A DNA stretch of 63,206 nt, filler included, from Kipferlia bialata (taxonomy: Eukaryota): NCBI GenBank assembly GCA_003568945.1. It is 5 parts of 5 records of this genome, joined end to end, with 100 filler letters (N's around TTAATTAATTAA, not from the genome) between each part and the next. Parts side by side here need not be neighbours in the genome. Positions count along the whole stretch, not along the records: positions 35,517 to 52,430 come from BDIP01000562.1; 4 more parts are not named here. One strand, 5' to 3'. The notes below the pieces were generated by a model. That model searched no databases. It saw only the letters and a list, made by a program, of their open reading frames with translations, and was not told the origin of the DNA. Below are positions 10,138 to 56,113 of the stretch, in pieces. The translations under genes were made by a program, and so were the position numbers. Every line of letters starts with the position of its first letter. Position 1 is the stretch's first letter.

Positions 10138-10237
10138 NNNNNNNNNNNNNNNNNNNNNNNNNNNNNNNNNNNNNNNNNNNNTTAATTAATTAANNNNNNN
10201 NNNNNNNNNNNNNNNNNNNNNNNNNNNNNNNNNNNNN
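10138..10237. other. artificial contig linker N44-TTAATTAATTAA-N44
   Basis: Six-frame stop linker flanked by 44 Ns; identical to three other linkers in the window. Confidence 0.98.
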
Positions 10238-10304: not shown

Positions 10305-11317
10305 GAGAAGGTTGTCGAGAGGGCCGGCCAGCACCAGATCATCATCTTCGTGCACAGCAGGTACGGGACTCTCTCTCTCTCTCTTTCTTTCTCTATGTCC
10401 ATCTCTCTCTCTCTCCTCTTTGCTAATACCAGGAAGGAGACTGTCCGTTCCGCCAAGCTCATCAGAGACGGCCTCATGGAGCAGGTATCTAACTTACTAA
10501 TAGTGTATTGATATTTGTAAGTGTATGAATATTCCGAATCCAGTCTCCCCTCCCGCTCTCTCACCCCCAGGGCCTCATTGGCAAGCTGGTCCCCGAGAGC
10601 GGTGCCACAGTCAGGGTCCTCCAGGTACATGTACTTCGTACTCATATGTGTATTGTCACTACGTATAGTCTTCAATATACGCCCCCTGATGCCCAGGACT
10701 CTGTGGCCGAGGCCCAGTCCAACGACCTTAAGGACCTCCTCCCACATGGAGTGGCTGTCCACAATGCAGGTGTGTGGTGTATGTATGTATATATATATGG
10801 ATAGCGTGTTCCATTCAGTAGTGCGTTACAGCGAGTTATGTCTAATCCGTAGGAATGACCCGTTCCGACAGACACCTCATCGAGAGGCTCTTTGCCCAGA
10901 GGCACATCCAGGTATAGTCTCTCTCTCTCTCTCTCTCTGTATTATTCAAGTATAATATACTCACCCCAGATCCTTGTGTCCACAGCCACCCTTGCCTGGG
11001 GTGTCAACCTCCCTGCCCACACAGTTATCATCAAGGGCACAGACGTGTACTCATCTGAGATGGGTACGTGGTGATCATATATGATTGAGTCCTATATAAT
11101 AGTAACTATGTATACCTTACCCTCAGGTGGCTGGGTCGACCTTGGTTTCATGGATGTCCTTCAGATGATTGGTCGTGCCGGAAGGCCCCAGTTCGATACT
11201 AGTGGAGAGGGTACGTGTATACTATCTCTCTCTATGTTTTTTGTGTACCCCTTATTCTTTCACCCCCCTGGAATCATCAACACCAAGGAGAGTGCCGTGT
11301 CGTACCTCTGTATATTC

Positions 11318-11350
<33 letters not shown>

Positions 11351-13082
11351 ACACCCTTACCCTCACCCCCTAAGTATCATCATCACCAAGGAGAGTGCCA
11401 TGTCGTATCTCTGTATATTCTCTCTCTCTCTCTCTCTCTCTCTACACCCTTATGTTCACCCCAGGTATCATCATCACCAAGGAGAGTGCCATGTCGTACT
11501 ACCTGTCCATCTTCAACGAGCAGCTGCCAGTGGAGTCCAGGATGATCGGCCGGTACGTATAATTACCATCCAAAGTGAATAATAATAGTGCATTACTTGG
11601 CTTCATTGTTAGTGTGTAAATATCATTCCATCTCTTACCTCCAGTCTGTGCGAGGCCCTCAATGCCGAGATTGTCCTAGGCACTGTGGCAGATGTCAGAG
11701 AGGCAGTCATCTGGCTCAGATACACATACCTCTACTCCAGGTACACAATACACTGTTCTAATCCTATTTCCCCCATGTGGTTCTGATGTCCATATTCGTC
11801 TAGCCCCTCACTGTCAGGATGATGACCGACTCCTCCAACGCTGCCGCAGACAGGTATGTGGCATATGAATATGTCAAGTGAACTGGAAGATAACTTCTAT
11901 AACGTATAATTGTATTCCCTCACCCCCCAGGTACGGCGTATCCCAGTCCATGCGTGTTAAGTCTCTCTCTATACGTAGTCTTGTGTATTATGAAGTACAT
12001 ATTACCTACCCTCAGGTACGGTGTGTCCCAGTCCATGCGTGTTGAGGACAAGGGCCTGGTCAGATACAGAAAGGCACTCATCGTGGCAGCTGCCACAGAG
12101 CTCGCCAAGCAGGGTACGTATGTATGTATATGTATACACACACGAGTGTATATACATATAGTATCATCCTAACCCCCCAGGCCTTGCCTCCTTCGATGTG
12201 GCCACCCAGCGCCTCTCCCCCCTGCCCCTGGGTAGGATTGCAGCCAAGTTCTACATCACCCCACAGACAGCCAACAGATACAGCAGGTACTGTACCATCT
12301 ACCCTCACTGTGTTGTTCTAATACTTGTGCCCATCTCACCCCCCAGGCTTCTCCGCCCTGACCTCGAGTCCCCCACCGAGCTCCTGTCTGTCTTTGCAGC
12401 AGCAGACGAGTTTGCAGCAAGTGAGTGACAGTAACAGTACTCTCTCTATATATATATGTGTGTGTGTAGTAGAATTGTATTTGTATAACAGGGATCTCTC
12501 TCTCTTTCTCTTGGTTACCCCTCACCCCCAGTCAACCTCCGTTCTGAGGAGAAGGGTGAGCTGCGCCGTGTCATTGAGCGTGTCCCCATTCCCATCGCAG
12601 AGGAGGACACATCCCCACACGCAAAGATCATCGCTCTCCTGCAGGTAGATAGCAGACCTCCCTGAATATTGATTTTTGTACTCCATCCCCTCACCCCCAG
12701 GTGTTCATCTCCCGCCTCAACCTTGACGGCTTTGCCATGGTGGCTGACATGGTGTACATTGTGCAGAGCGCACAGAGGTATGTATTGCTTAGATATACAT
12801 GTATGTATGATACGTATCGCGCTTTTTCAATTGATATAGATTATGCAATTGATACAGTGCCATAGTATGATCTAAGTATGAACTAACCCCCCAGACTGAT
12901 GCGTGCTCTGTTTAAGATTGCCCCTCTATTATTCAAGTAACTATGCAATGGATATTGACTATATAATATCATTGTCTTACTCTAGACTGATGCGTGCTCT
13001 GTTTGAGATTGCCCTTGCCAAGAAGATGGCATACCCCACCCTGGCCCTGCTCAAGCTCAGCCAGCAGTGCCAGCACAGGTAT

Positions 13083-18389: not shown

Positions 18390-18489
18390 NNNNNNNNNNN
18401 NNNNNNNNNNNNNNNNNNNNNNNNNNNNNNNNNTTAATTAATTAANNNNNNNNNNNNNNNNNNNNNNNNNNNNNNNNNNNNNNNNNNNN
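18390..18489. other. artificial contig linker
   Basis: N44-TTAATTAATTAA-N44. Confidence 0.98.
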
Positions 18490-40916: not shown

Positions 40917-42149
40917 AGTGGTAATATTTATCCTTTTATACCACTATTGGTAGAATGATATCACTCTAACCCCCAGTCCCCCCTTCTGCTCCATGACCTC
41001 CTTAGGTCCAACAGGACTGTGCTGTACCCACTCATCAGTGCATTCTGCGGGGTGTTCCAGGTACATATAGTACATATATAGTATATTATATTTATAGTAC
41101 ATAGTACAAGTACCTAGGACAGTGCTCTACCCACTCATCAGTGCATTCTGTGGGGTTTTCCAGGTACATATAGGATATATATAGTATGTATAGTATATAT
41201 AGTATGTATAGCATATATAGTATGTATACCATGTCGAGTATACTCTATGTCCTCTACCCACTCATCAGTATCAGTATCAGTATCAGTATCAGTGCGGGGT
41301 GTTCCAGGTACATATAGTACCTATGTATAATATATAGTATAATATATAGTATAATATATAGTATAATATACATACATTGTTCAAGTACATAGGACAATGG
41401 TATATCCACTCAGCAGTGCATTCTGTGGGGTGTTCCAGATATGTACAGTGTATTTAGTAAACATACTCGTACATGACATGTATAGTCAGTCTCTCTAAGC
41501 AGAAGCTTGGCCCCTCCTCCCTCTATTGCCACATTGTATACAACTTTATGTAATCATATGTATTCTGATGCCTAACCTCTAGCTCGAGAATCTCCTAGTA
41601 GATGGCACCTCTCTGGGTCACTTCAGCCCTCTAATTAATATATATATTTCTCTGTTTCTATCTGTATATATGATCCTAACTTCTAGCTTGAATCGCTCCT
41701 TGTGGTCGATGCGTCTCTGGGCCACTTCAGCCCTCTCTCCAGCACCCTTGGTGTCATACTCTCCAGTGTGCATGGCCTCAGGGACATCCCACTGGCTATG
41801 TACAGGGTACTGCTGGATAGGATAGTAGGTATGCGGTATACAGTGTGTTAATATTCAACATAGCCTCAGTGGGAGTTGTAGCTTTACCATCTCTCTGTAT
41901 GTATATATATATTTATGTATTCTCTCTGTAGGTGTACTTGGGTCAGAGGCTGTATATCAGCCGAGGCATAAGTTACATTTCTTTGTATATATATATATGT
42001 ATGTGTATGTCTGTACAACTAACTCTCAGGTGTGCTTGGCTGGGTCAGGGGCTGTATATCAGCCGAGGCTTCCAGGGTCTTTGCATCAGTGCTAGACAGG
42101 ATGCCAGCGGTGGTGGACGTGTTACAGCTAGACAAGAAGGTACTAGGCA

Positions 42150-42184
<35 letters not shown>

Positions 42185-42408
42185 TATATACCATATGTCT
42201 TTGCATCAGTCCTCGATAGGATGCCGGCGGTGATGGATGTACTACAGTTAGATGTTAAGGTACTTATCATCATCATACTGTATATATATATATATATATG
42301 TGTGTATTTAAATCTATGTATATTTTATATATTTTAATATATATATATTTATGTATATATATATATGTATATGTATATATGCCTCTGTATATATTAATAT
42401 ATATATAA

Positions 42409-42441
<33 letters not shown>

Positions 42442-42566
42442 TATGAGAGATACTATATATATATATATGCCTCTGTCCTCGACAGGATGCCTGCGGTGGT
42501 GGATGTATTACAGCTGGATAAGAAGGTATTCACTTCTTGTAATGAATATTTAGTATGTGTGAAATG

Positions 42567-42599
<33 letters not shown>

Positions 42600-44898
42600 A
42601 CCCTTATTGTCAGGAGTCCTCTTCCAAGGCATACAACATCCTGCACATGGTTCAGCTCCTGCTGATATCATACTCGGCAACATACTACGAGCAGCCAGTG
42701 GAGGTAAGTGCACAGAGATGTATACACAAATGGATTTTAGTATTTGCAGTGACTATGCTATGCATACGTTACAGCCATTGGAGGTACGGTATTATGTGAG
42801 GGCATCGTGTAGTACCACTATCGAGTATTATATATGTATGTGTTAGTAGCTGCCTTGTTGAGATACATCCCCTTACCCCCTTACCACACACGCACACATA
42901 CATACATATTTGTATGTGTGTGTATATACTCATAGGAGAATGAAGCTTCATTACCCCTTACACCCAGGGAGAGAACATTGCCACCAAGGAGATGTGTCTG
43001 CAGCAGGGTATCACAGGTAAGATTTCTGTAGTATACGTACCTCCCGTTAATATACTCATCCATTTATTGATGACTTATATCCCTCTACCCTCACCCAGGT
43101 GCCATGCAGCGTGTGGTTGAGCTCTCTCACACACACACTCTCTCCCTCAATCTCTCTCTCGCTCTCACTCTCACTCTCACCCTCACTCTCCCTCTCTCTC
43201 TCTCTCTCTACATATATATATATATTCATATACACATATGTCTTCTAATGACCCAGGTGCCATGCAGCGTGTGGTCGAGTACCTCCATGACCCCCAGTCA
43301 ACACTCAAGGCATACTCTACAAAGGCTAAGGTACACACTAGTATATCTATGATACATATATGATATATATATGATATATGTATATACATTACTGTGTCCT
43401 CAAGGCATACTCCACTAAGGCAAAGGTTAGTCATTGGAGTATCTGTATTTATATAGCACATATGATATTTATATATACACATATATATATATATATACAT
43501 TACTGTGTCCTCAAGGCATACTCCACTAAGGCTAAGGTAGACATTAGTACGGATTAGAACGTATATACAAATAGCATGTATAGTTGTAGTGTGTCTTAGT
43601 ATATCTATGTACTCAAGGCATACTCTACCAAGGCTAAGGTTAGTCATTGCAGAACACTTGGATATAATATGTATTAATATTTATGTTCTCAAGGCATACT
43701 CTACCAAGGCTAAGGTATACAGTAGTATATATATTGTAGTAGTATATTCGAATGTCATGTGTAATAGTATTATGTATTAGTGTATGTGTGTGCTCAAGGC
43801 ATTCTCCACTAAGGTGTACATACACGTTTGGTTAATCATTTGTAATTATATACATTCATTTATACTCAATGTACTCATACATGTACTCTCTCTCTCTCTC
43901 TCTCTCTCTTTCCCTTCATACCTTGCTTACCCTAGGGCGTCTCCCCCCACATTGCTACTGAGCCCCAGTTCTACTTCGGTGCATACCTCTCTCTCTCTCT
44001 CTCTCTTTACCTATCTTACATTCAGGGTGTATCTCCCCACATTGCTACTGAGCCCGAGTTCTACTTCGGTGCATACCTAGTCATGGCCAGTGCCCTGGGA
44101 CCAACCACACATGGCTATGTCAACTTCACACAGGTATATATATATATTTATGAATGTATATATGATGTATGTAGAATACATGGATACGTCAACTTCACTC
44201 AGGTACACAGTGTATACAACAATTTTACACATGCACTATTATATATATATGTATGCTAACCCTCAGCTCTTCCTGCGCTGGTATGCAGGCGGTGCCGTCT
44301 CTCACTATACATATATGTATATATACTAGTATCTCTCTCTATATATATACATGTATAACATATACTCTATATACTCTAACCCCCTAGCTCTTCCTGCGCT
44401 GGTTTGCAGGCACTGACGGTCTCAATGCATCCTGGGATGGACCACTCACAAAGGTATGGGGTTCTCTCCCTCTCACCCTCTCCCTCTCTTAATCAATATG
44501 TATATACATATGTATATATGTACAATGATGTATGTGCTCTTCCTTATCACCCCAGTACATCCTGCTTGTCCTCAATGGCACCCTGAGCAGCAGCACAGGC
44601 ACCATAGTGACACCTGCCATGCCAGTGCCATTCTGCAGGTATACATATATGTGTGTATATATATATATATATGAGTGTATGTATACATATATATACCTAT
44701 ACAGAGGATAGGTGCTATGTCAAATATATGTATATTCATGACACCAGCCATGCCAGTGCCATTCTGCAGGTATAGTATATATATATATATATATATGAAT
44801 GTATATATATAGAAAGGGAAGGAGGGATGTCATCCTTAAGAGGTGTATGTATCTGAGTATTTGTATTTGGCACCAGCCATGCCAGTGCCATTCTGCAG

Positions 44899-44936
<38 letters not shown>

Positions 44937-45210
44937 CCTTTATATCCAGCTGGGTCATAGGCCAGTTGAAGTCTGTGTCTCTCTCCCTCCCTCTATACAC
45001 ATACCTATGTATATGGGTACATGTACTGTATGTATATCTATATCTAACCCCAGCTGGGTCATTGGCCAGTTGAAGTCTGTGCGTGACCCATCCGACATAG
45101 TGTCACTCAGTGATATGGTACCAGAGGTATAGATATGTATGATATAGACAGATAGATGAATGGATATAATGTATATAGGTGCCAGAGGTATGTGTAATAG
45201 GACTAGTTGC

Positions 45211-45241
<31 letters not shown>

Positions 45242-48200
45242 CCCCTCTACACCCTTAATACCCAGGCCGATGAGGATGTGGTCGAGTGGTCATGCTGGAA
45301 CCCCAGTCAGAGGTACGGAGTATTGCTATATACATATATGGGACAACACAATCATTGACGTGCCTCTGGCCTCCAATTTATATATGCTACAATGTTGATA
45401 CATATCATACAACATATAAATATATATATCATAATACCTATATTTCACTTGTATGTATTGATAACCTATCTTACCCCTAGAGGCGTAGATGCCGCCGGTG
45501 TCCCCCTTGCCTACAATGTACTGAGGGCATACCAGAGTGAGCACATCAAGGTATGGACTATATATCGATACAAGTATATATATATATGCAATATATATAT
45601 ACTCTGTCTATATTACATACATCTAACCCCCAGCTGTTCAAGTCGTGCCGTGACAGCAAGGGTCATCTCCCATACTCCCATACATACCTATACATTATAT
45701 ATATACATATACCTAACCACAGCTGTTCAAGTCGTGCCGTGACAGCAAGGGCCTGGCCATGGCAGTCAGGGGCATGAGTGTGTACTTGTCTACAAACAAG
45801 GTAGAGTATAGATATATGGATGTGTAGTATATATATATATATATATATATGATACTGTGTGTGTTGTAAGGGCCTGGCCATGGCAGTGAGGGGCATGAGT
45901 GTATACCTATCAACCAATAAGGTATACACATGGATATATGATTAGTATACATTAGTATATATTAGTAGTCTTAATATACATTTATACCCTGACCTCCAGG
46001 CCAACACTGCCCTCAACCACATCTCTGTATCTACCTCTTATATATATACACACACACACCTATATATATATATGTATATATATGTATCGATCTAGTATGT
46101 ATCTATACATGTACTGACCGCCAGGCCAACACTGCCCTGAACCACATATATCTACCTCATATATGTATATATACACACACACACATATATATCATATACA
46201 TATATATGGTATATATGTATCTGACCACCAGGCCAACACTGCCCTGAACCACATCGACAGTGTCTACCCATATATGTATATACACACACATATATATATC
46301 ATATACATATATATGTATATGTATACTGACCACCAGGCCAACACTGCCCTCAACCACATCGACAGTGTCCGCACAGCATACTTCAGGTATGTATATATAT
46401 ATATACTATATTGTATAGATATATACAAATTTATTGTATTCATTTGGATATGTCAGCTGTACTGGTGTTGACAGTGTCCGCACAGCATACTTCAGGTACA
46501 CAATCCATTGGGTCATCCTATAACACTATGTATCCTTCTCTCTCTCGCTCGCTCTCTATTTCTCCAGGTAACACCAGTGAATATATAACAATACACTTCG
46601 GGCAACATGTGAATACCTTAGTATTGTATATGTACATGTATATATTCCTTACCTCTAGGACCACTGTCCCCTATGGCGCAGGCATTGTCTGTGGCAGACT
46701 GGCCAAGGAGCAGGCATACTTAAAGTACGTTATATATATGTAGTATAGTATATATATAGTGACATAGTTTAGTATATATATAGTGACATGAGTGATACTA
46801 TACAGTGTATATTATGAATGTATGTGAAATACTATAGTCTTGTGTGGCAGACTGGCCAAGGAGCAGGCATACCTCAAGTGAGTAATAATAGATATATATG
46901 CATATACTATTATATACTACTATACACTATTATATATACATATACTTGTATATATATATATATATATATATACTGTGTGTCTGTGGCAGACTGGCCAAGG
47001 AGCAGGCATACCTCAAGTACGCATCAATGCATATATATGCATATACTAATATATACTATTATACACTATTATATATACATATACTTATATATATATATAT
47101 ATGTCTGTGGCAGACTGGCCAAGGAGCAGGCATACTTGAAGTACGCATCAATGCATATATATGCATATACTACTATATACTACTATACACTATTATATAT
47201 ACATATGCTTGTATATATATGTCTGTGGCAGACTGGCCAAGGAGCAGGTATACTTGAAGTACGCAGTATTCCACATATTGTATACATATACACTACTATA
47301 TAGACAGATACTTGTATATATATCTATGTATACATATATATATATTTGTATCATCATATTCTTGTATGGCAGACTGGCCAAGGAGCAGGCATACCTAAAG
47401 TGAGTAATAATAGATATATGTATACACATATATAGACATATACTTATATATGTATGATTATATACTATAGATACCGTATGGCTGTGGCAGACTGGCCAAG
47501 GAGCAGGCATACCTCAAGTGAGTAATCATATAGATATGTACATATTTATACACCTATTCACTACTATATAGACGTATACTTGCATATCTATCCATACATA
47601 GATATATATATATATGTGTGTGTGTGTGTGGCAGACTGGCCAAGGAGCAGACATACCTCAAGTACGTCTCTATCGCTCTCTCTCTGTGTGTCTCTCACCC
47701 CTTAGAAAGGAGGTCTTCATCAAGGAGACCTGTGACATCATCCAGTCATCCAGCACATCTACTTCTAACCATATAATCATATATATATGTATATGTATAT
47801 ATATACATATCTAACCGTAGGAAACAAGTATTCATCAAGGAGACCTGTGACATCATCCAGTCATCCAGCACATCGGTCAGAGAGTTTGTGGCTGGCATGA
47901 TCGAGGCCTGTGACAAGTGAGTGGTACATATAGTGTATACTAGAGTATAGTGATAGTGTGGTATATATAGCTATAGAGAGGGGACAGAGAGAGAGAGAGT
48001 TTGTGGCTGGCATGATCGAGGCCTGTGACAAGTCCGTTAGTTCTCTCTCTCTCACTCTTAGTCACGTCTCTCCCTCCTCTCTCTCTCTCTCCCTCTACAC
48101 CCTTTATTCACCCCTAGGTCCCAGGACGAGGCAATCAAGACCTTCCTCTCCCTGAAGACACTGCACAAGCCCCTGGACTCAGTTTTTGTACAGTTCGGTG

Positions 48201-48678
48201 GACTCCCGGCAGGTATAGATTAATTTTTTCTACGCGATTACATTTTTACGCGAGTACATGTTCGGTGGGCTCCCGGCAGGTATAGGTTCTAAGTCCTACA
48301 CGATTGTACTTCTTACGCGATTACTCACTCTATAGGCACTGAAGAGCGTGCCGGTCTCCCCCTACCCCCCTTTGTGCACGGGTGGTCTGTGGGCAATGAC
48401 CCATGGCTGCCCAAGTGGGGGCAGTTCCTACAACTTACTAGGTACATATATATAGTGTACAGTTATAGTGACTGTCCATGTATGACATCTTGAGTGTATT
48501 AGTATATTCCATAATTGTCTAGGAGTCAAAATGCATGTATACTCTGCTCATCATCTCCCCCCATAGTATTATGTATAGTGATATAGTAATATATAGTAGT
48601 AGTAATAGTAATGTATAGTAGTGTGTCTCTCTCACACCAGGACCCACTCTGCGGACCAGACATCTTTCTCTCTCTCTA

Positions 48679-48715
<37 letters not shown>

Positions 48716-51700
48716 ATATTTCCATATTTATTATTCCATATCTAATGCCAGGACCCACTCCGCCGACCAGAACGTGCTGATCAAGCAGTGGCTAGGTACG
48801 TAGAGATGTAGATAGACAACTATGTATAGATACAGTATTTATATACATTTGACTGTATATATGTGTGCAATACTAACCTCAGGACTGTGCAAGACATAGT
48901 ATGTATAGGATACCTTAGTATATATATATGTATAGATATAACCCCAAGGGCTGTTCAAGAAAGAGGCACCCACTCTACCAGTATCCGAATCTTCTCAAAT
49001 GTATTAGTATTATATATATTGTATAATTATGGTGTATGTATATATCTCACCCCAAGGTCTGTTCAAGAAGAAGGAGGCCCCCATCCTGAGGATGTTATTA
49101 CTATATATTGAATGCTATATAGTATATATGAACTATATATATAGTATATATACACTGTATGTATATAGTGTATATATATATTACTGACCCTAGGTCTGTT
49201 CAAGAAGAAGGAGGCCTGCCATCCTCAGGATGTTATTACTATATATATATATATATATATATATGTCTTCTTATGTATCTAACTACACCTTATATAGTGT
49301 ATATATACGTATATATATACATTAGTGTCTCACCCAGGCCTGTTCAAGAAGAAGGAGGCCCCCATCCTCAGGATGTTCATAGCAACACTGGCCTTCTACC
49401 ACTACTACGACGCACCAGGTACAATCCTTATATCTACGCGATGATCACTTCATACACGGTACTCTTTAACACTACGACGCACCAGGTACCACCCGTATAT
49501 CTACGCGATGGTATATTTCTTACACGATTCCATTTTGTGTTCATAATATTCAACATGATACCAGGCTGCTTTGGACCCAACCTCCCCTCTAGGGCCAAGC
49601 TAGTGGCTGCCAGTAGAGCACTGGACAACAGCTACATGAATGGCATAGAGCATGCATACATAGTGATGCTCAGTGACCCCAGGTACTTCTAGAGATAGTG
49701 TACACATACACACACACCCTTACCTCTATATATATGCGGTATATATATATACATGAATGGCATAGAGCATGCATACATTGTGAGGCTGAGTGACCCCAGG
49801 TGGGAGACATTAGGCTCTGATATACGAATGACCTTACCTATACTTGATAAAGCTATATTACTAGATATGATTGTATCTAACTCTCCAGACAGGCACCCGT
49901 GTGGAACACGTCCGAGCCAGACTTCAAGTACCTCAGACGGAACCACAACGTGATGCAGGTATATATGTATCTCTCTCTCTCTCTCTCTCTTCATCCAATA
50001 TCTCTGAGAACTGAAAACACATTGTTTATGTCTATACCCTTACTCACTCACTCTCTACACCCCTAGTATCTAGGAACTGTACACTGTGCCTGGTCACGTT
50101 CTCTCTCCCTCTCTCTCTCTTTTTCTCTCTCTCTCTCTCTCTCTCTCTACACCCTTAATATCCAGGAACTGTACACTGTGCCTGGCCAGGTGGTGGATGC
50201 AGACGATGATGAGCAGAGGAGCCACAGGTAATATATATATATATATATATATACTACAATAGATATATAGATATAGGTATGTAGATATATAGATATAGGT
50301 ATATATATATATATGTAGTCTCTACACTATATATATTATGTGGATGCAGACGATGATGAGCAGAGGAGCCACAGGTGAGTACATGTATTATTATTTATAC
50401 TANNNNNNNNNNNAGCAGAGGAGCCACAGGTGAGTACATGTATTATTATTTATACTACAATAGATATATATATAAAGGTATATACATATATATATGTAGT
50501 CCCTACACTATATATATTATGTGGATGCGGACGATGATGAGCAGAGGAGCCACAGGTGTGTATGTACATAGTATGAATGGTATATATATATGTATATTGA
50601 GAGAGAGAGAGGGAGAGAGAGACGATGATGAGCAGAGGAGCCACAGGTATCTATGCACCGAGTCCAGACATCATATATAGTGATTGCTTAATATGTATTA
50701 TGTGTATCTCTCTCCCCTATCCCTGCTCACCCCAGGTTCTTCCGTCAGCACAAGAACGCTCTCTCTCTCTCTCTCTCATTATATATGTATATGAATATTC
50801 AGACACCTCCCTATCCATCCTCACCCCAGGTTCTTCCGCACAGAATCATTCTCTATCTGTTTATTACTAAATGCTCATTACTGTTTAACTATTTCTCTTA
50901 CCCCAGGTTCTTCCGTCAGGCCATCGCCCTGTGCATCATATACGGACTGGGGGTCAACAGGTATATGCTGTAGTTTACACATGCATAGACATATATATAT
51001 ATAGTGTATATCTCTGGAGGGTATCTCTTCAATTTACTATTGCCCTGTGCATCATATACGGACTGGGGGTCAACAGGTATATATGCACTATATACTATAT
51101 GGTGATATGTACTGAGAGTATATACATACTGATACTTGTTCATATTATTATTGCCCTGTGCATCATATACGGACTGGGGGTGAACAGGTATAAGATAAGA
51201 TGTAGTAAGTATACTATACGAAGTAACTATACTATTGCCCTGTGCATCATATACGGACTGGGGGTCAACAGGTATAGGCTGTATTCATAGTCTCTTGTAT
51301 TGTTATGTATATATATGTGTGTGTATGTATATATATATATATCTTACCCCCTAGGAGGGGGGCCCACTGGTCCAGGACCATGATTCAATAACTAAGATGT
51401 CATCAGTATACATTATTATATATATACTTGTATATACTACTATACTACTATCATTCTATACCACTAGGAGTGGTTTGGTTGTTATATATATATGTAGATC
51501 TATATATGACACTAGGAGCGGGGCCCACTGGTCCAGGACCATGATTGAGAAGTACATCGACCTCAAGGGGTGCTTCCTCATCGGTATGGATAAGTCTATC
51601 AATATATATATGTATGTATGTGTATATATATACATATATAGTACATCGACCTCAAGGGTGCTTCCTCATCGGTAAGGACATCAATCTCTCTCTCTCTCTC

Positions 51701-52113
51701 AAACTGTCCCACTGTTTGTCTCACTCATTTCATTGTTATTGTGTGAATCTCTCTATGTATACCTATCTTACCCCTAGGCCATGCGTGGAACAGTCCAGTT
51801 GGTAACGGCATCCACATCGACTGTGGAATGAAGGTACAGTATACTGAGTTGTACCTCTATACCCTTTCCAATACTCTAGGTGGACTTCTATTGCTGTGTG
51901 TTGTTACTATAGTATTCTTCATTCTCACTCTCAGGATGCCAAGTTCTCCTCCACCGTGACAGCTGAGGCAATGAGTGTCAGATCACTGGGGCCATTGGCC
52001 ACAAGGTGAGTTTGCATGAATATGGTATGTATCTATACTACACTTTATGTATCTATGTGTTTGTACTGAGGCCATGAGTGTCAGAGAACTGGTGCCACTG
52101 GCTACTAGGTGAG

Positions 52114-52430: not shown

Positions 52431-52530
52431 NNNNNNNNNNNNNNNNNNNNNNNNNNNNNNNNNNNNNNNNNNNNTTAATTAATTAANNNNNNNNNNNNNN
52501 NNNNNNNNNNNNNNNNNNNNNNNNNNNNNN
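52431..52530. other. artificial contig linker
   Basis: N44-TTAATTAATTAA-N44. Confidence 0.98.
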
Positions 52531-55500
52531 CAGACACCACACAGTGGGTGGGGCTGATGCTGCCTGGCACGATAGTGATAGTGCCTGCAGAGGGGATGAG
52601 AGCTGGTGTGCCAGTCACACCTACACTAACAGTGTAGTCTCCAGCAAGAGAGAGTGCCGCCGTGGCAATGTATTTCTCGGTAGTTGAGTCAAACACAGCT
52701 GATCTAGGTACCACAGTGGTATCCAGAGTGAATGTGACTGTGACATTGGCTGTGTCTATGGCAATGGCCACCCCAGACTCGTCCTTGAGTGCCACTGACA
52801 CCTCACACTCCTCCCCAGCCACCACGTCTTCTGATGGGAGGGTCACCACGGACTGGGAGCCATCTGGTACCAGAGGGGCAGATATGGTGACAGTCCCAGC
52901 ACTTGTAATGAATGAAGATATCGAGTCGACACCTATACTCACAGTGTGGTCCCCCTCCACGCTGTGTACAGCACTGGTACTAGTGACAATGTACAGTCCC
53001 ACCGATGAGACAGAGGCAGTGGCATCAATGGTCACTGCACTACCGCCCTGGGTGAATGTGGCAGTCACACCAGTGTCAGCGGAGGTGGGGTTGGAGTACT
53101 GATCCCTGAGCATGACAGAGAGTGTGAACCCGAATCCTGAGGGCACAGCAGAGTCAGGGAGGGAGACAGTACTGGCAGACCCATCAGGGGCAGATCCAGT
53201 GACAACAAAAGTGGTGGTTCCAACTGATGCAGAGTCATAGGATACACCAATGGATACGGTGCCTGAGGAGGTGAACGTCCCTGTGAATGTGTATGTACTG
53301 GCAGCTGCCCCCAGTGCTCCACTCATGGGTGCCTGTGTCGCACCCTGGGTCATGACACCTGTGAAGCTGGGGAGGGAGGACCCATCTACAGGGATGAGGT
53401 TGCCGTATGAGTCACTGACAGTCACATCCACAGAGACGGACTCCCCTGCAGAGACTGAGGCAGGGCTGGGACTGCCAACCCTTGATGCTGCAGCACTGAT
53501 GGCGGCTGGTACAATGGTAACGGTACCAGCATTGGTGATGAAGGAGGGGGTGTCCGTGTATGCGATACTGACAGTGTACACACCGGCCTTAGTGGCAGTG
53601 CATGAGAGGGTGTACACAGGCCCGGCAGCCAGGTATGTCGCAGTGAAGGGCAGGCTGGTCTCCCCCATCGTGAGTGTACCAGTCACAGTGGTCTCAGTAG
53701 GAATGTCAACACCTGACTCGTCCTTCAGCTGCACATAGACATCGAATGCCGCCCCTGCCACCTGGGGGGTGTTGATGGTGACAGCTGATGCACTTGGATC
53801 TGGAGTGGCAGGGGCACTGACAGTGACAGAGGCGGTCTTGAAGAGGGGGACCCCAGTATACCCAACGGAGATTGTGTGAACCCCTACCACCTCATCCACA
53901 GCTGCAGTGCTGCTGACTGTGTATGTTGCAGTGCCTGAGTCATATGTAGCCACGATGGGTACTGAAGTCTGCCCCACCGTGAATGTGACAGTGACTGTCG
54001 TCTCAGTGGCCAGCACGTTGAAGCTGTTATCTCTGAGGACCACACTGACTGTGAACTGAGTACCTGTCTCGACGGTACTGGCAGAGAGCAGCACATCAGA
54101 GAAGTCTGCATAGGCTGCGAGGGGGAGTACAGTGACAGTGCCTGCCTCACTGATGAAATCAGGCACCCCAGTGTAGCCTATCCCCACTGTGTATGTGCCT
54201 GGGACACTGTGTACAGAGGATGTGCTGGTGACAGTGTACACCTTGGTGTTGGTGTCATACACGGCCTCGATGGAGACAGGCGTGGACCCCTCCTGAGTGA
54301 ATGTGAAGGTGACAGTGGTGGACCAGGGGATGGCTGTGAAGGAGGCGTCCATGAGCACAACAGTGGCTGTGAACACACTGCCATAGGATATGTCGGAGGA
54401 GGGCAGGAAGAGGTTGAACCCGGTCATCGTGGCGTCTGGGACAGCCACCTCCCCTGTGACTGTCACAGACCCAGCATCTGTCATGAAGGAGGGACTGTCT
54501 GTGATGCCTATACTGAGGGTGTGGGTCCCTGCCACATGGTCTATAGCATCGGTGCTGGTGACAGTGTACAGAGCAGTCCCTGCGTCATATGCAGCCACAA
54601 TGGGTACAACCTCAGACCCCACGGTGAAGGAGACAGTGAGTGCCACCCCGGTGGACACTGTGTTACTGTACTCATCCTTGAGTAACACCTGCACTGTGAA
54701 CTCTTCACCTGCCTGTACAGAGGAAGAGGGCACAGTAACAGTGGAGGTGGAGGGGTCTGGGGTGGAGGGGTCTACAGTGAAGGCAAGAGGGAATGTGCTC
54801 TGGCCGTACCCACACCCCTCTGTTGACTGCGCATAGAGGGTGTGACTCTCTGTGGCCACAGTAGGCAGAGTGACACTTCCGCCATACTTGCCATCTGCAG
54901 AGTGGGAGAGAGACACACTCCCAGACATGTCGGCGGAGTGACTGACACTGAGGGAGAGACAGGTGATGGGGGAGGAGGACCCATCAAGGACAGTGACCTC
55001 CAGTGCTGTGGATGTCCCTACTACACCCTGTGTAGTGCTAGTGATGGTACAGCTAGGCACCCTGGGCAGCACAGACACACTGTACTGGAAGGTGGTGAGG
55101 GTGTATCCAGACCCAGGGTATGACCCCCCCTGGACCCTTCCGTATATGGTAAGGGTACCCACGGCATCAGTGGGTACAGGAAGGGACCCTGTATACACAC
55201 CATCCCCCGAGTGCCCTAGATATACTGAGGCAGAGAGGTCGGAGTAGACACTGAGCTCCACTGACTCAGCAGTCAGTCCCACCCCTCCCGCATCCTGTAC
55301 AGTGAGAGTGAGAGATTCACTCTCCCCGGCAGTGACACTCGACTCAGCAAGAGTAACGCTGGGGTAGGGGTTGCTGGTGGACACGTATAGGACCACCACT
55401 GAACCCACAGAGGTCTGATCCATGTACACAACCTCGACAGTGCTGGACCCGGCCACAGCAGAGGTGCCAGTGTATGTATAGAGCCCTGAGTCGGTGTTGT

Positions 55501-56010
55501 ATGCACCGGCCATTGCCACGTCTAACTGGCCAGAGAGAGTGAGAGTGGCAGTGATAACGGGAGCGAGGTTGGTAGTGACTGCATTGCCGAATGCGTCCAT
55601 GGGGTCTATGTACACTGCCACCTCCTCCCCCACTGATAAGGGTCCAGTGGGTCCAGAGACACTAGACTTGGCGGCACTGAAGGCAGAGGGGACCACTGAC
55701 ATGGTACCGGCATCAGCTATGAAGGCGGAGGTGCCCGTGTACCCCACACTCACCACCCAGTCCCCTGCTCTGGTAGGAGCAGTGGCAGCGATGAGGTATG
55801 TCTGGAAGCTGGACTCATAGGTGGCCTCATAGGAGTGGGACAGGGTGCCCATACTGAGGGTGGCAGTGACTGTCGTCTGGTCCGATACAACACTACCCCC
55901 ACTGTCCCTGAGCACAACACTCATGTCCAGGGTGGTACCAGCTACAACAGTGCTGTCAAAGGAGACAGTGGACTCAGATGGGTCGGGGGAGACAGACTTG
56001 GGTGCATAGC
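52531..56010 (-). CDS. giant internal exon encoding at least 11 tandem ~100-aa Ig-like (filamin/invasin-type) repeats; probable surface or adhesion protein
   Basis: Open for at least 3.48 kb from the acceptor ctcactcccag (CAG at 56013-56011) to the contig end. Repeat motif PD.S.S.V....V.AG..F.V.V.L.D..GN...Y.....Y.V......G.Y.V.V; Ser/Thr/Val-rich beta-strand pattern. Confidence 0.85.
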
Positions 56011-56113
56011 CTGGGAGTGAGGAGTGTGCCTATGTCTTTCGGTCACTATACACTATGAAGAGAGAACGAGAGAGGGGGGGGGGGGGGGGGGGGGGGGGCG
56101 TAAATAGGATAGG

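Follow-up and report, generated by a model that had tools for sequence, protein, structure and literature searches.

Intron 20 of KIPB_003078, a gene of the metamonad Kipferlia bialata, holds two genuine partial copies of exon 20, each reproducing its 3' end and each on the same strand as the exon. Such half-exon copies, here termed echoes, recur throughout the gene on the strand of the exons, with about 60 overall and at least one in 30 of its 43 introns. The echoes differ from their exons mainly by silent changes, and as a rule they are not translated by read-through. The account adopted here, which is possible rather than probable, is that they are tandem duplicates spanning exon-intron boundaries that are ignored in splicing, are not translated, and undergo gene conversion that rewrites their cores, the donors being functional versions of the exon.

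The gene lies in the window, the whole stretch of 63,206 nucleotides that was analysed. In a protein search, KIPB_003078 (a hypothetical protein, 1100 aa as annotated) was the sole database protein matching exon 20, at 100% identity, and its residues map without mismatch to 44 coding exons on the plus strand, from 36354 to 52006. Its introns are of the GT-AG type, with mostly GTAY donors and a CTNAY branch motif a few bases ahead of the AG. Pfam returned no family for the protein or for its single relative, a 4125-residue protein with 27% identity recovered from 1.84 billion representatives, in a library that collapses relatives above 50% identity and is uninformative on close paralogs. Residues 591-1100 of KIPB_003078 match residues 3171-3675 of this relative, and the 1100 aa of the annotation are thus probably only part of a much larger protein. 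A 6648-nt transcript-like contig (from run X2, described below) runs past the model at both sides.

Exon 20 (42030..42139, plus strand, 110 nt) has a CTAAC branch motif and AG ahead of it and GTAC behind, and its last 57 nt, the 19 codons at 42083-42139, constitute copy A. Upstream lies an echo of its 5' part (41931..41969, plus strand), with AG just before it; the core at 41939-41967 is 96.6% identical, with two silent changes in ten codons, and a 4-nt deletion near the start places the echo out of register with its own AG. Downstream, at a tandem period of 120 nt from A according to TRF, is copy B (42197..42261, plus strand), in which homology begins at 42197 and 19 codons at 42203-42259 are followed by GT (GTAC). 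The opening of B is identical to exon 20 over about 13-14 nt (GTCTTTGCATCAG), and beyond it 13 of 49 positions differ. A TA-rich tract (42281..42468; TRF period 2, 93.5 copies, 76% matches) separates B from copy C (42469..42527 including the GT of GTAT, plus strand), whose 19 codons specify the protein of copy A. Within the tract, 11 nt at 42378..42388 (plus strand) are identical to 42466-42476, at the junction of TA tract and C 88 nt downstream, and are a small later slippage duplicate of that junction. The remainder of the intron (42528..42613, plus strand) holds (TC)n at 42569-42597 and then the acceptor of exon 21 (annotated at 42614..42703, plus strand, and covered by an X2 contig from 42612). 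Copy C and its 86-nt tail resemble a full exon end with an 88-nt intron; C continues GTATTC, and exon 21 begins GAGTCC.

Between A and C nine codons are changed, all silently and all at the third position, with no replacement. A and B differ by nine silent and two replacement codons, B and C by six silent and two replacement codons, and the replacement changes of B include AAG to GTT. The A-C match is well above background (blastn E = 1.4e-9 for a 45-nt core against a 17-kb subject, with no hits in the reversed region used as control). That all nine changed codons should be silent has P = 3.3e-6 if both copies drift, and P = 2.3e-4 if C drifts while the exon accepts silent changes only. No run longer than 11 nt is common to A and C and 9 of 19 third positions differ, and thus a recent exchange between the two is unlikely. 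Flank homology to the start of the exon 20 intron is weak for B (z 2.9, in TA-rich sequence) and absent for C (z 0.0). A CTNAY-N1-8-AG branch/acceptor motif, present at 34 of the 44 real acceptors of the gene, is found ahead of neither B nor C, and neither is a complete tandem exon with both acceptor and donor. The preliminary description of this locus had reported 19 identical residues with nine synonymous codon changes between A and C, nine synonymous and two nonsynonymous changes in a middle copy from 42197, a copy C lacking an acceptor behind (TA)n, and a real exon ending at 42139 with the next at about 42614; each of these statements was borne out when recounted to the base, the two exons being exons 20 and 21.

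Tandem copies in a draft genome may be products of assembly. Ko et al. are said to have described such false duplications in 2022, and the resemblance here is of tandem near-identical copies beside gaps, of which the window has one. At an 11-N gap (50403-50413, within 50359-50457) an identical 44 nt lies on either side and gives the appearance of an exon 40 echo. The hallmark of the artefact, identical copies beside a gap or contig end, occurs only for this copy, which starts at 50414 and represents an unmerged contig overlap; A, B and C differ from one another at 9-13 bases and have no N between them. An exon and its echo could nonetheless come from different genomes, appearing tandem through a short-read assembly or a culture of several diverged genotypes. 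According to the excerpts of the genome paper (PMC5874029), a single paired-end library was assembled with SPAdes, and the contig containing C has a word depth of 260 against 361 for its neighbour; both points speak for this reading. Against this, an allele would bring a whole exon, not half of one fused to a microsatellite, and since the identical cores fall short of the largest default word of the assembler, the units are distinguished by their flanks. Furthermore, a separately built DNA contig (from run X1) covers 42462-42555 without a difference, including the truncated TA/C junction that is itself duplicated 88 nt upstream, although X1 may be the source sample of the window, in which case its support is not independent. 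On balance, an assembly origin of the exon-echo pairs is improbable.

A separate intact paralog elsewhere in the genome could also have served as the source of B and C, and the silent-only divergence of A and C, at 9 of 19 third positions, is what is expected of two long-functional copies. A 43-residue query around exon 20 matched KIPB_003078 alone among proteins of 77-2000 residues, and a search for longer relatives with residues 430-640 of KIPB_003078 matched nothing among proteins of 1926-5000 residues. Metagenome contigs scanned with the KIPB_003078 protein and with 37 nt of copy C gave no match. An intact paralog or allele carrying the codons of C, the case in which the preliminary description would have been abandoned, was therefore not encountered in the protein collection or the metagenome contigs searched. 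Moreover, about 60 echoes each adjoin their own exon, and a distant paralog is thus no explanation for them; this origin is very unlikely indeed.

The gene-wide survey places A, B and C in a regular pattern. When each exon was searched against the gene region, 68 plus-strand matches were obtained outside the exon itself, as against two marginal 14-nt matches on the minus strand and none in the reversed control; ungapped matches in adjoining introns numbered 62, from which the 44-nt overlap at the 50403-50413 gap was discarded. Echoes upstream of an exon always represent its 5' part and those downstream always its 3' part. AG accompanies all 18 upstream echoes tested, and the branch/AG motif is present in 14 of 19; it occurs at 34 of the 44 real acceptors and at 36 of the 550 remaining AGs in introns. 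Downstream echoes retain GT in 29 of 31 cases and have lost it in two. The copies are half-exons, having only GT if downstream and only branch/AG if upstream, and never both splice sites. Intron length is given by 122 + 119 nt per echo (r = 0.93, 43 introns), and with the predominance of one strand (68 versus 2) and the 120-nt period of A and B, the echoes form same-strand, head-to-tail arrays of regular spacing. The longest array of the gene is in intron 32 (46726-47821, 1096 nt), with seven echoes of the exon 32 tail and one of the exon 33 head.

Aligned without gaps, echo and exon agree at 0.92 of positions over the exon part and at 0.97-1.00 over the GT or AG, and within about 6-7 nt past the donor identity falls to 0.31-0.33, near the background of 0.29. 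Under gapped local alignment the flanks of 24 of the 48 echoes examined are homologous at p<=0.01. In the exon 33 echoes the cores are fully identical (44/44 and 39/39) in unrelated flanks, and in the exon 9 family variants are shared incompatibly among copies. Frame-breaking indels are present in the third exon 18 copy, in one exon 37 copy and in the exon 42 copy. For exons flanked by echoes on either side, the upstream piece tends to stop where the downstream piece starts, as in exon 31 (46000-46496; pieces 1-24 and 25-51) and exon 40 (50074-50647; pieces 1-27 and 28-63); the gap is <=10 nt, or there is a small overlap, in seven of ten such exons. Such two-sided echoes have the look of a single exon copy divided by a unit containing the whole exon. 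Annotated exons 6 and 7 (37560-37768) have a 28-nt repeat in common, the tail of exon 6 copying the head of exon 7, and the annotated protein consequently has HTPLGSTMS twice; the exon 6 tail may be an upstream echo that acquired a donor and joined the gene model, or it may be an error of the model.

The codon pattern of A and C is likewise general. Over strict BLAST cores (61 echoes, 637 codons) exon and echo differ at 11/7/61 sites of codon positions 1/2/3, the changed codons being silent in 65 cases and replacement in 11, and lenient extension to 715 codons gives 22/12/109 by position and 109 silent versus 31 replacement codons, with no stop. Taking only the nearest copy in each of 39 families leaves 5/5/40 by position and 41 silent versus 8 replacement codons, or 37 versus 7 when the exon 20 family is removed. 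By comparison, random single-base changes in the echo pieces would be silent in 23.3% of cases, and a drifting echo beside an exon that accepts silent changes only would show about 62% replacement codons, far from the 8/49 and 11/76 observed (p <= 1e-9). Echoes compared with one another over 114 codons have segregating sites of 9/4/22 by position, with 23 silent and 6 replacement codons (p = 3e-10). The flanks provide a neutral yardstick: for the 24 echoes whose flanks can be aligned, 96 of 896 flank columns differ (10.7%, with 61 further gap columns), as do 33 of 256 third positions (12.9%), whereas only 4 of 512 first and second positions do so (0.8%). Replacement-site changes are 6- to 13-fold below what the echoes' own flanks predict. 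In families of three or more, all eight exon-private changes are silent and at third positions, and 23 changes private to one echo are distributed 6/4/13 by position, 14 being silent and 9 replacement. Because the silent bias holds across families, between echoes and against flanks, plain neutral decay is excluded.

Third-position changes comprise 24 from AT to GC and 17 from GC to AT, with no shift toward the AT-rich composition of the introns, and on these counts AT-biased or GC-targeted mutation was dropped as a cause. An annotation-free phase test on ungapped self-matches had little power (p = 0.4 even in KIPB_003078). In a stricter version, mismatch spacings were multiples of three in 34 of 71 cases in KIPB_003078 and in 34 of 67 for direct repeats elsewhere in the window; this same effect indicates that the pattern is not peculiar to KIPB_003078.

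Other parts of the window may be described here. At about 2-18 kb on the plus strand is a gene for an ASCC3/Brr2-type helicase (11105-11221; ASCC3, E = 1.7e-16; SNRNP200 chains, E = 1e-14), the introns of which likewise have repeated exon pieces, for example at 11260-11500. Two long unbroken frames (31133-32347 and 52475-56029, minus strand) stand out, exons elsewhere being small; an SPT16 PH-like domain (E = 7e-13) is present in one, the other consists of 1184 residues of filamin/Ig-like repeats, and a protein search with the SPT16-like frame gave no match. Runs of 44 N occur in four pairs, with 12 bases between them, beside long C or G runs (10138-10237, 18390-18489, 35417-35516 and 52431-52530), which looks like a fixed masking or scaffolding pattern, not like sized gaps.

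A coding-like pattern invites the view that the echoes are translated. The preliminary description had taken the synonymous changes as a sign of protein-level selection, and in this the silent bias proved real and gene-wide, while the translation route found no support. Reading through from the exon is possible, in frame and without a stop, for only 4 of 50 echoes: among 31 downstream echoes ten are in frame and one, copy B, is stop-free, and among 19 upstream echoes six are in frame and three (exons 11, 24 and 31) are stop-free. Copy C, at an offset of 386, does not keep the frame of exon 20. The annotated protein contains one copy of each echoed segment.

Translation in minor transcripts, through alternative donors or acceptors or starts internal to the introns, would expose the echoes directly to selection on protein. 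Copy B lends itself to this, as it keeps the frame of exon 20 (offset 120), no stop intervenes, and use of its donor would insert 40 residues; the open upstream echoes of exons 11, 24 and 31 do so as well, and the end of annotated exon 6 places an echo-like piece in the gene model already. Yet for 46 of 50 echoes read-through is impossible, offsets are in frame about as often as expected by chance (10/31 and 6/19), C lacks an acceptor as well as the frame, and the alternative forms would carry the same peptide. Translation of this kind is very unlikely.

Evidence on splicing came from assembled contigs of two runs of one sample, X1 (presumably DNA) and X2 (RNA-like, by guess), which were compared with 42462-42760. 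The 6648-nt X2 contig includes exon 21, starting at 42612, and then passes into the opening letters of exon 22 (from 42968), and intron 21 is therefore spliced out as annotated. The X2 contigs have no cover over copy C, contigs being indicative of presence and not of absence, and the contig is silent on whether the donor of A or of B joins exon 21 because all three copies end in AG. Of the words sampled from 38000-47999, X2 contains a share of 0.12, equal to that of the 31-mers that fall entirely within annotated exons (0.119), which is no more than a hint. Several special modes of splicing were considered and dropped: recursive splicing, as most exons do not begin with GT and the echo ends have no branch motif; nested splicing as an explanation of why the echoes are conserved like coding sequence; and non-canonical sites at the truncated echo ends, which have no motif in common. 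A processed, cDNA-derived copy is ruled out by the GT after the exon piece in 29 of 31 downstream echoes.

For the origin of the echoes, local tandem duplication of a segment reaching from inside an exon into the neighbouring microsatellite-rich intron is supported and likely, possibly by slippage or template switching in these introns. A duplication spanning the boundary accounts for the single strand of the copies, their polarity, the size of the units and the homology of the flanks. Having only one splice site each, half-exons are likely ignored in splicing, and under exon definition they would be invisible. Within an intron donor-only pieces always come ahead of acceptor-only pieces, and the real exon is therefore the sole acceptor-donor pair at exon distance.

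One possible cause of the silent divergence is that the echoes are themselves under purifying selection as functional intronic elements, their sequence being held codon-wise or at all positions while the real exon drifts silently; this is unlikely, though far from negligible. Roles that may be imagined, with the same reserve, are as spare exon ends for recombinational repair beside fragile microsatellites or as exon-like decoys that would guide or protect the splicing of long introns rich in repeats. That untranslated half-exon elements, each an exon piece with one splice signal and changing 6 to 16 times more slowly than its own flanks, form a genome-wide class under purifying selection in K. 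bialata introns is similarly doubtful. The rarity of replacement relative to silent change, measured against the neutral yardstick of the flanks, is what selection predicts, whether counted from exon to echo (65 versus 11, and 41 versus 8 with one echo per family), from echo to echo (23 versus 6) or by position (0.8% against 10.7% in flanks and 12.9% at third positions), and the fall of identity from 0.92 to background within about 6 nt of the donor and the retention of branch/AG (14/19) and GT (29/31) point the same way. Selection acting on the copies as such is the simplest interpretation both of the echo-versus-echo bias and of third positions that have not drifted toward AT.

The function of the echoes is, however, only hypothetical, and copies of the same peptide contribute nothing to the protein. 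Visibly broken copies are also present (two with GT lost, three with frame-breaking indels, and B with its two replacements), and the constrained total would be very large if the pattern were genome-wide. Selection by way of occasional exchange with the exon is, by estimate, too weak, for exchange that leaves 13% silent divergence exposes a copy too seldom. Purging of damaged echoes by such exchange was rejected, its estimated effect being <=2-fold where the data need >=6-fold; conversion by the exon in cis as sole cause failed in the same manner, as it would lower replacement differences by an estimated <=2-fold where >=6-fold is needed.

The preferred alternative is that the exon-like cores would be rewritten repeatedly by gene conversion from functional exon variants. 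The donors in question would include alleles of the exon that differ at silent sites, drawn from a very diverse population; donors of this kind are needed because conversion by the cis exon alone leaves about 62% replacement differences. The perfect exon 33 cores in unrelated flanks, the mosaic structure of copy B and the variant sharing in the exon 9 family all point to exchange with the exon. Weighing against rewriting, the donors would need a mean silent difference of about 10-15%, and no second exon version was found in the protein or metagenome searches; silent diversity of about 10-15% is rare, and for K. bialata it would have to be postulated. Overall, selection on the echoes is favoured by the extent of the A-C divergence and by the outcome of comparing echoes with one another, and rewriting by the broken copies, the lack of gain from an identical peptide and the absence of a translation route. 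Between the two, rewriting from exon variants, which calls for silent diversity near 0.1, is chosen as the cause of the coding-like conservation, as a choice held with less than full conviction and well short of a settled conclusion.

The echoes invite comparison with several known systems. Tandem exon duplication reportedly gives rise to mutually exclusive or other alternative exons, as Letunic, Copley and Bork are said to have described in 2002, and clusters of the Dscam type consist of mutually exclusive tandem exons. As in those cases, the copies lie on the same strand in one gene, with the exon part conserved, the flanks not conserved, and a bias to silent change. Unlike them, the Kipferlia copies are halves with one splice site; they encode the same peptide (the 19 residues of A and C are identical, where tandem exons encode differing ones), they accompany most exons of the gene, and they are absent from the gene model. 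Intronic minisatellites (VNTRs) evolve by slippage, unequal exchange and gene conversion, and the arrays resemble them in their head-to-tail units of about 100-140 nt, variable number per intron and mosaic identity, but the Kipferlia units hold a piece of the neighbouring exon with a splice signal, and that piece alone changes like coding sequence. Assembly false duplications differ in that A, B and C are mutually different, with no gap, and that truncated junctions recur in a separately built contig.

Among published processes, the gain of introns by partial tandem exon duplication (PMC2891723, 2010) comes closest; according to the excerpts of that paper, a new intron arises inside an exon and the copied end of the upstream exon adjoins the next one. 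The likeness is that local tandem duplication including a splice junction leaves exon sequence in an intron with the mRNA unchanged; the layout differs, as in Kipferlia an existing boundary is copied, each unit adds about 119 nt to the intron, and the copy is followed by its own GT and intron. The K. bialata genome paper gives 124,912 GT-AG introns in its excerpts; the string 'duplicat' occurs nowhere in its text, and its excerpted passages on repeats are not about introns (PMC5874029). For Kipferlia, the excerpts of Hudson et al. 2019 (PMC6679479) give only a count of spliceosomal proteins. In the literature searched on Kipferlia introns, tandem exons, introners and partial exon duplication, no report of such echoes was found.

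Half-exon echoes can mislead gene finders and dN/dS screens for 'hidden exons'. If they are kept by selection, they would represent a large class of untranslated DNA that changes like coding sequence, for which a new function would be needed, candidates being templates for repair next to fragile repeats or exon ends that act as decoys when splice sites are chosen. If instead they are only rewritten from exon variants, the locus displays intron growth in an intron-rich metamonad, with a growth unit of half an exon plus about 80 nt that covers nearly all of the variation in intron length in KIPB_003078. Should rewriting be true, the species would have either very high silent-site diversity or very active gene conversion limited to exons.
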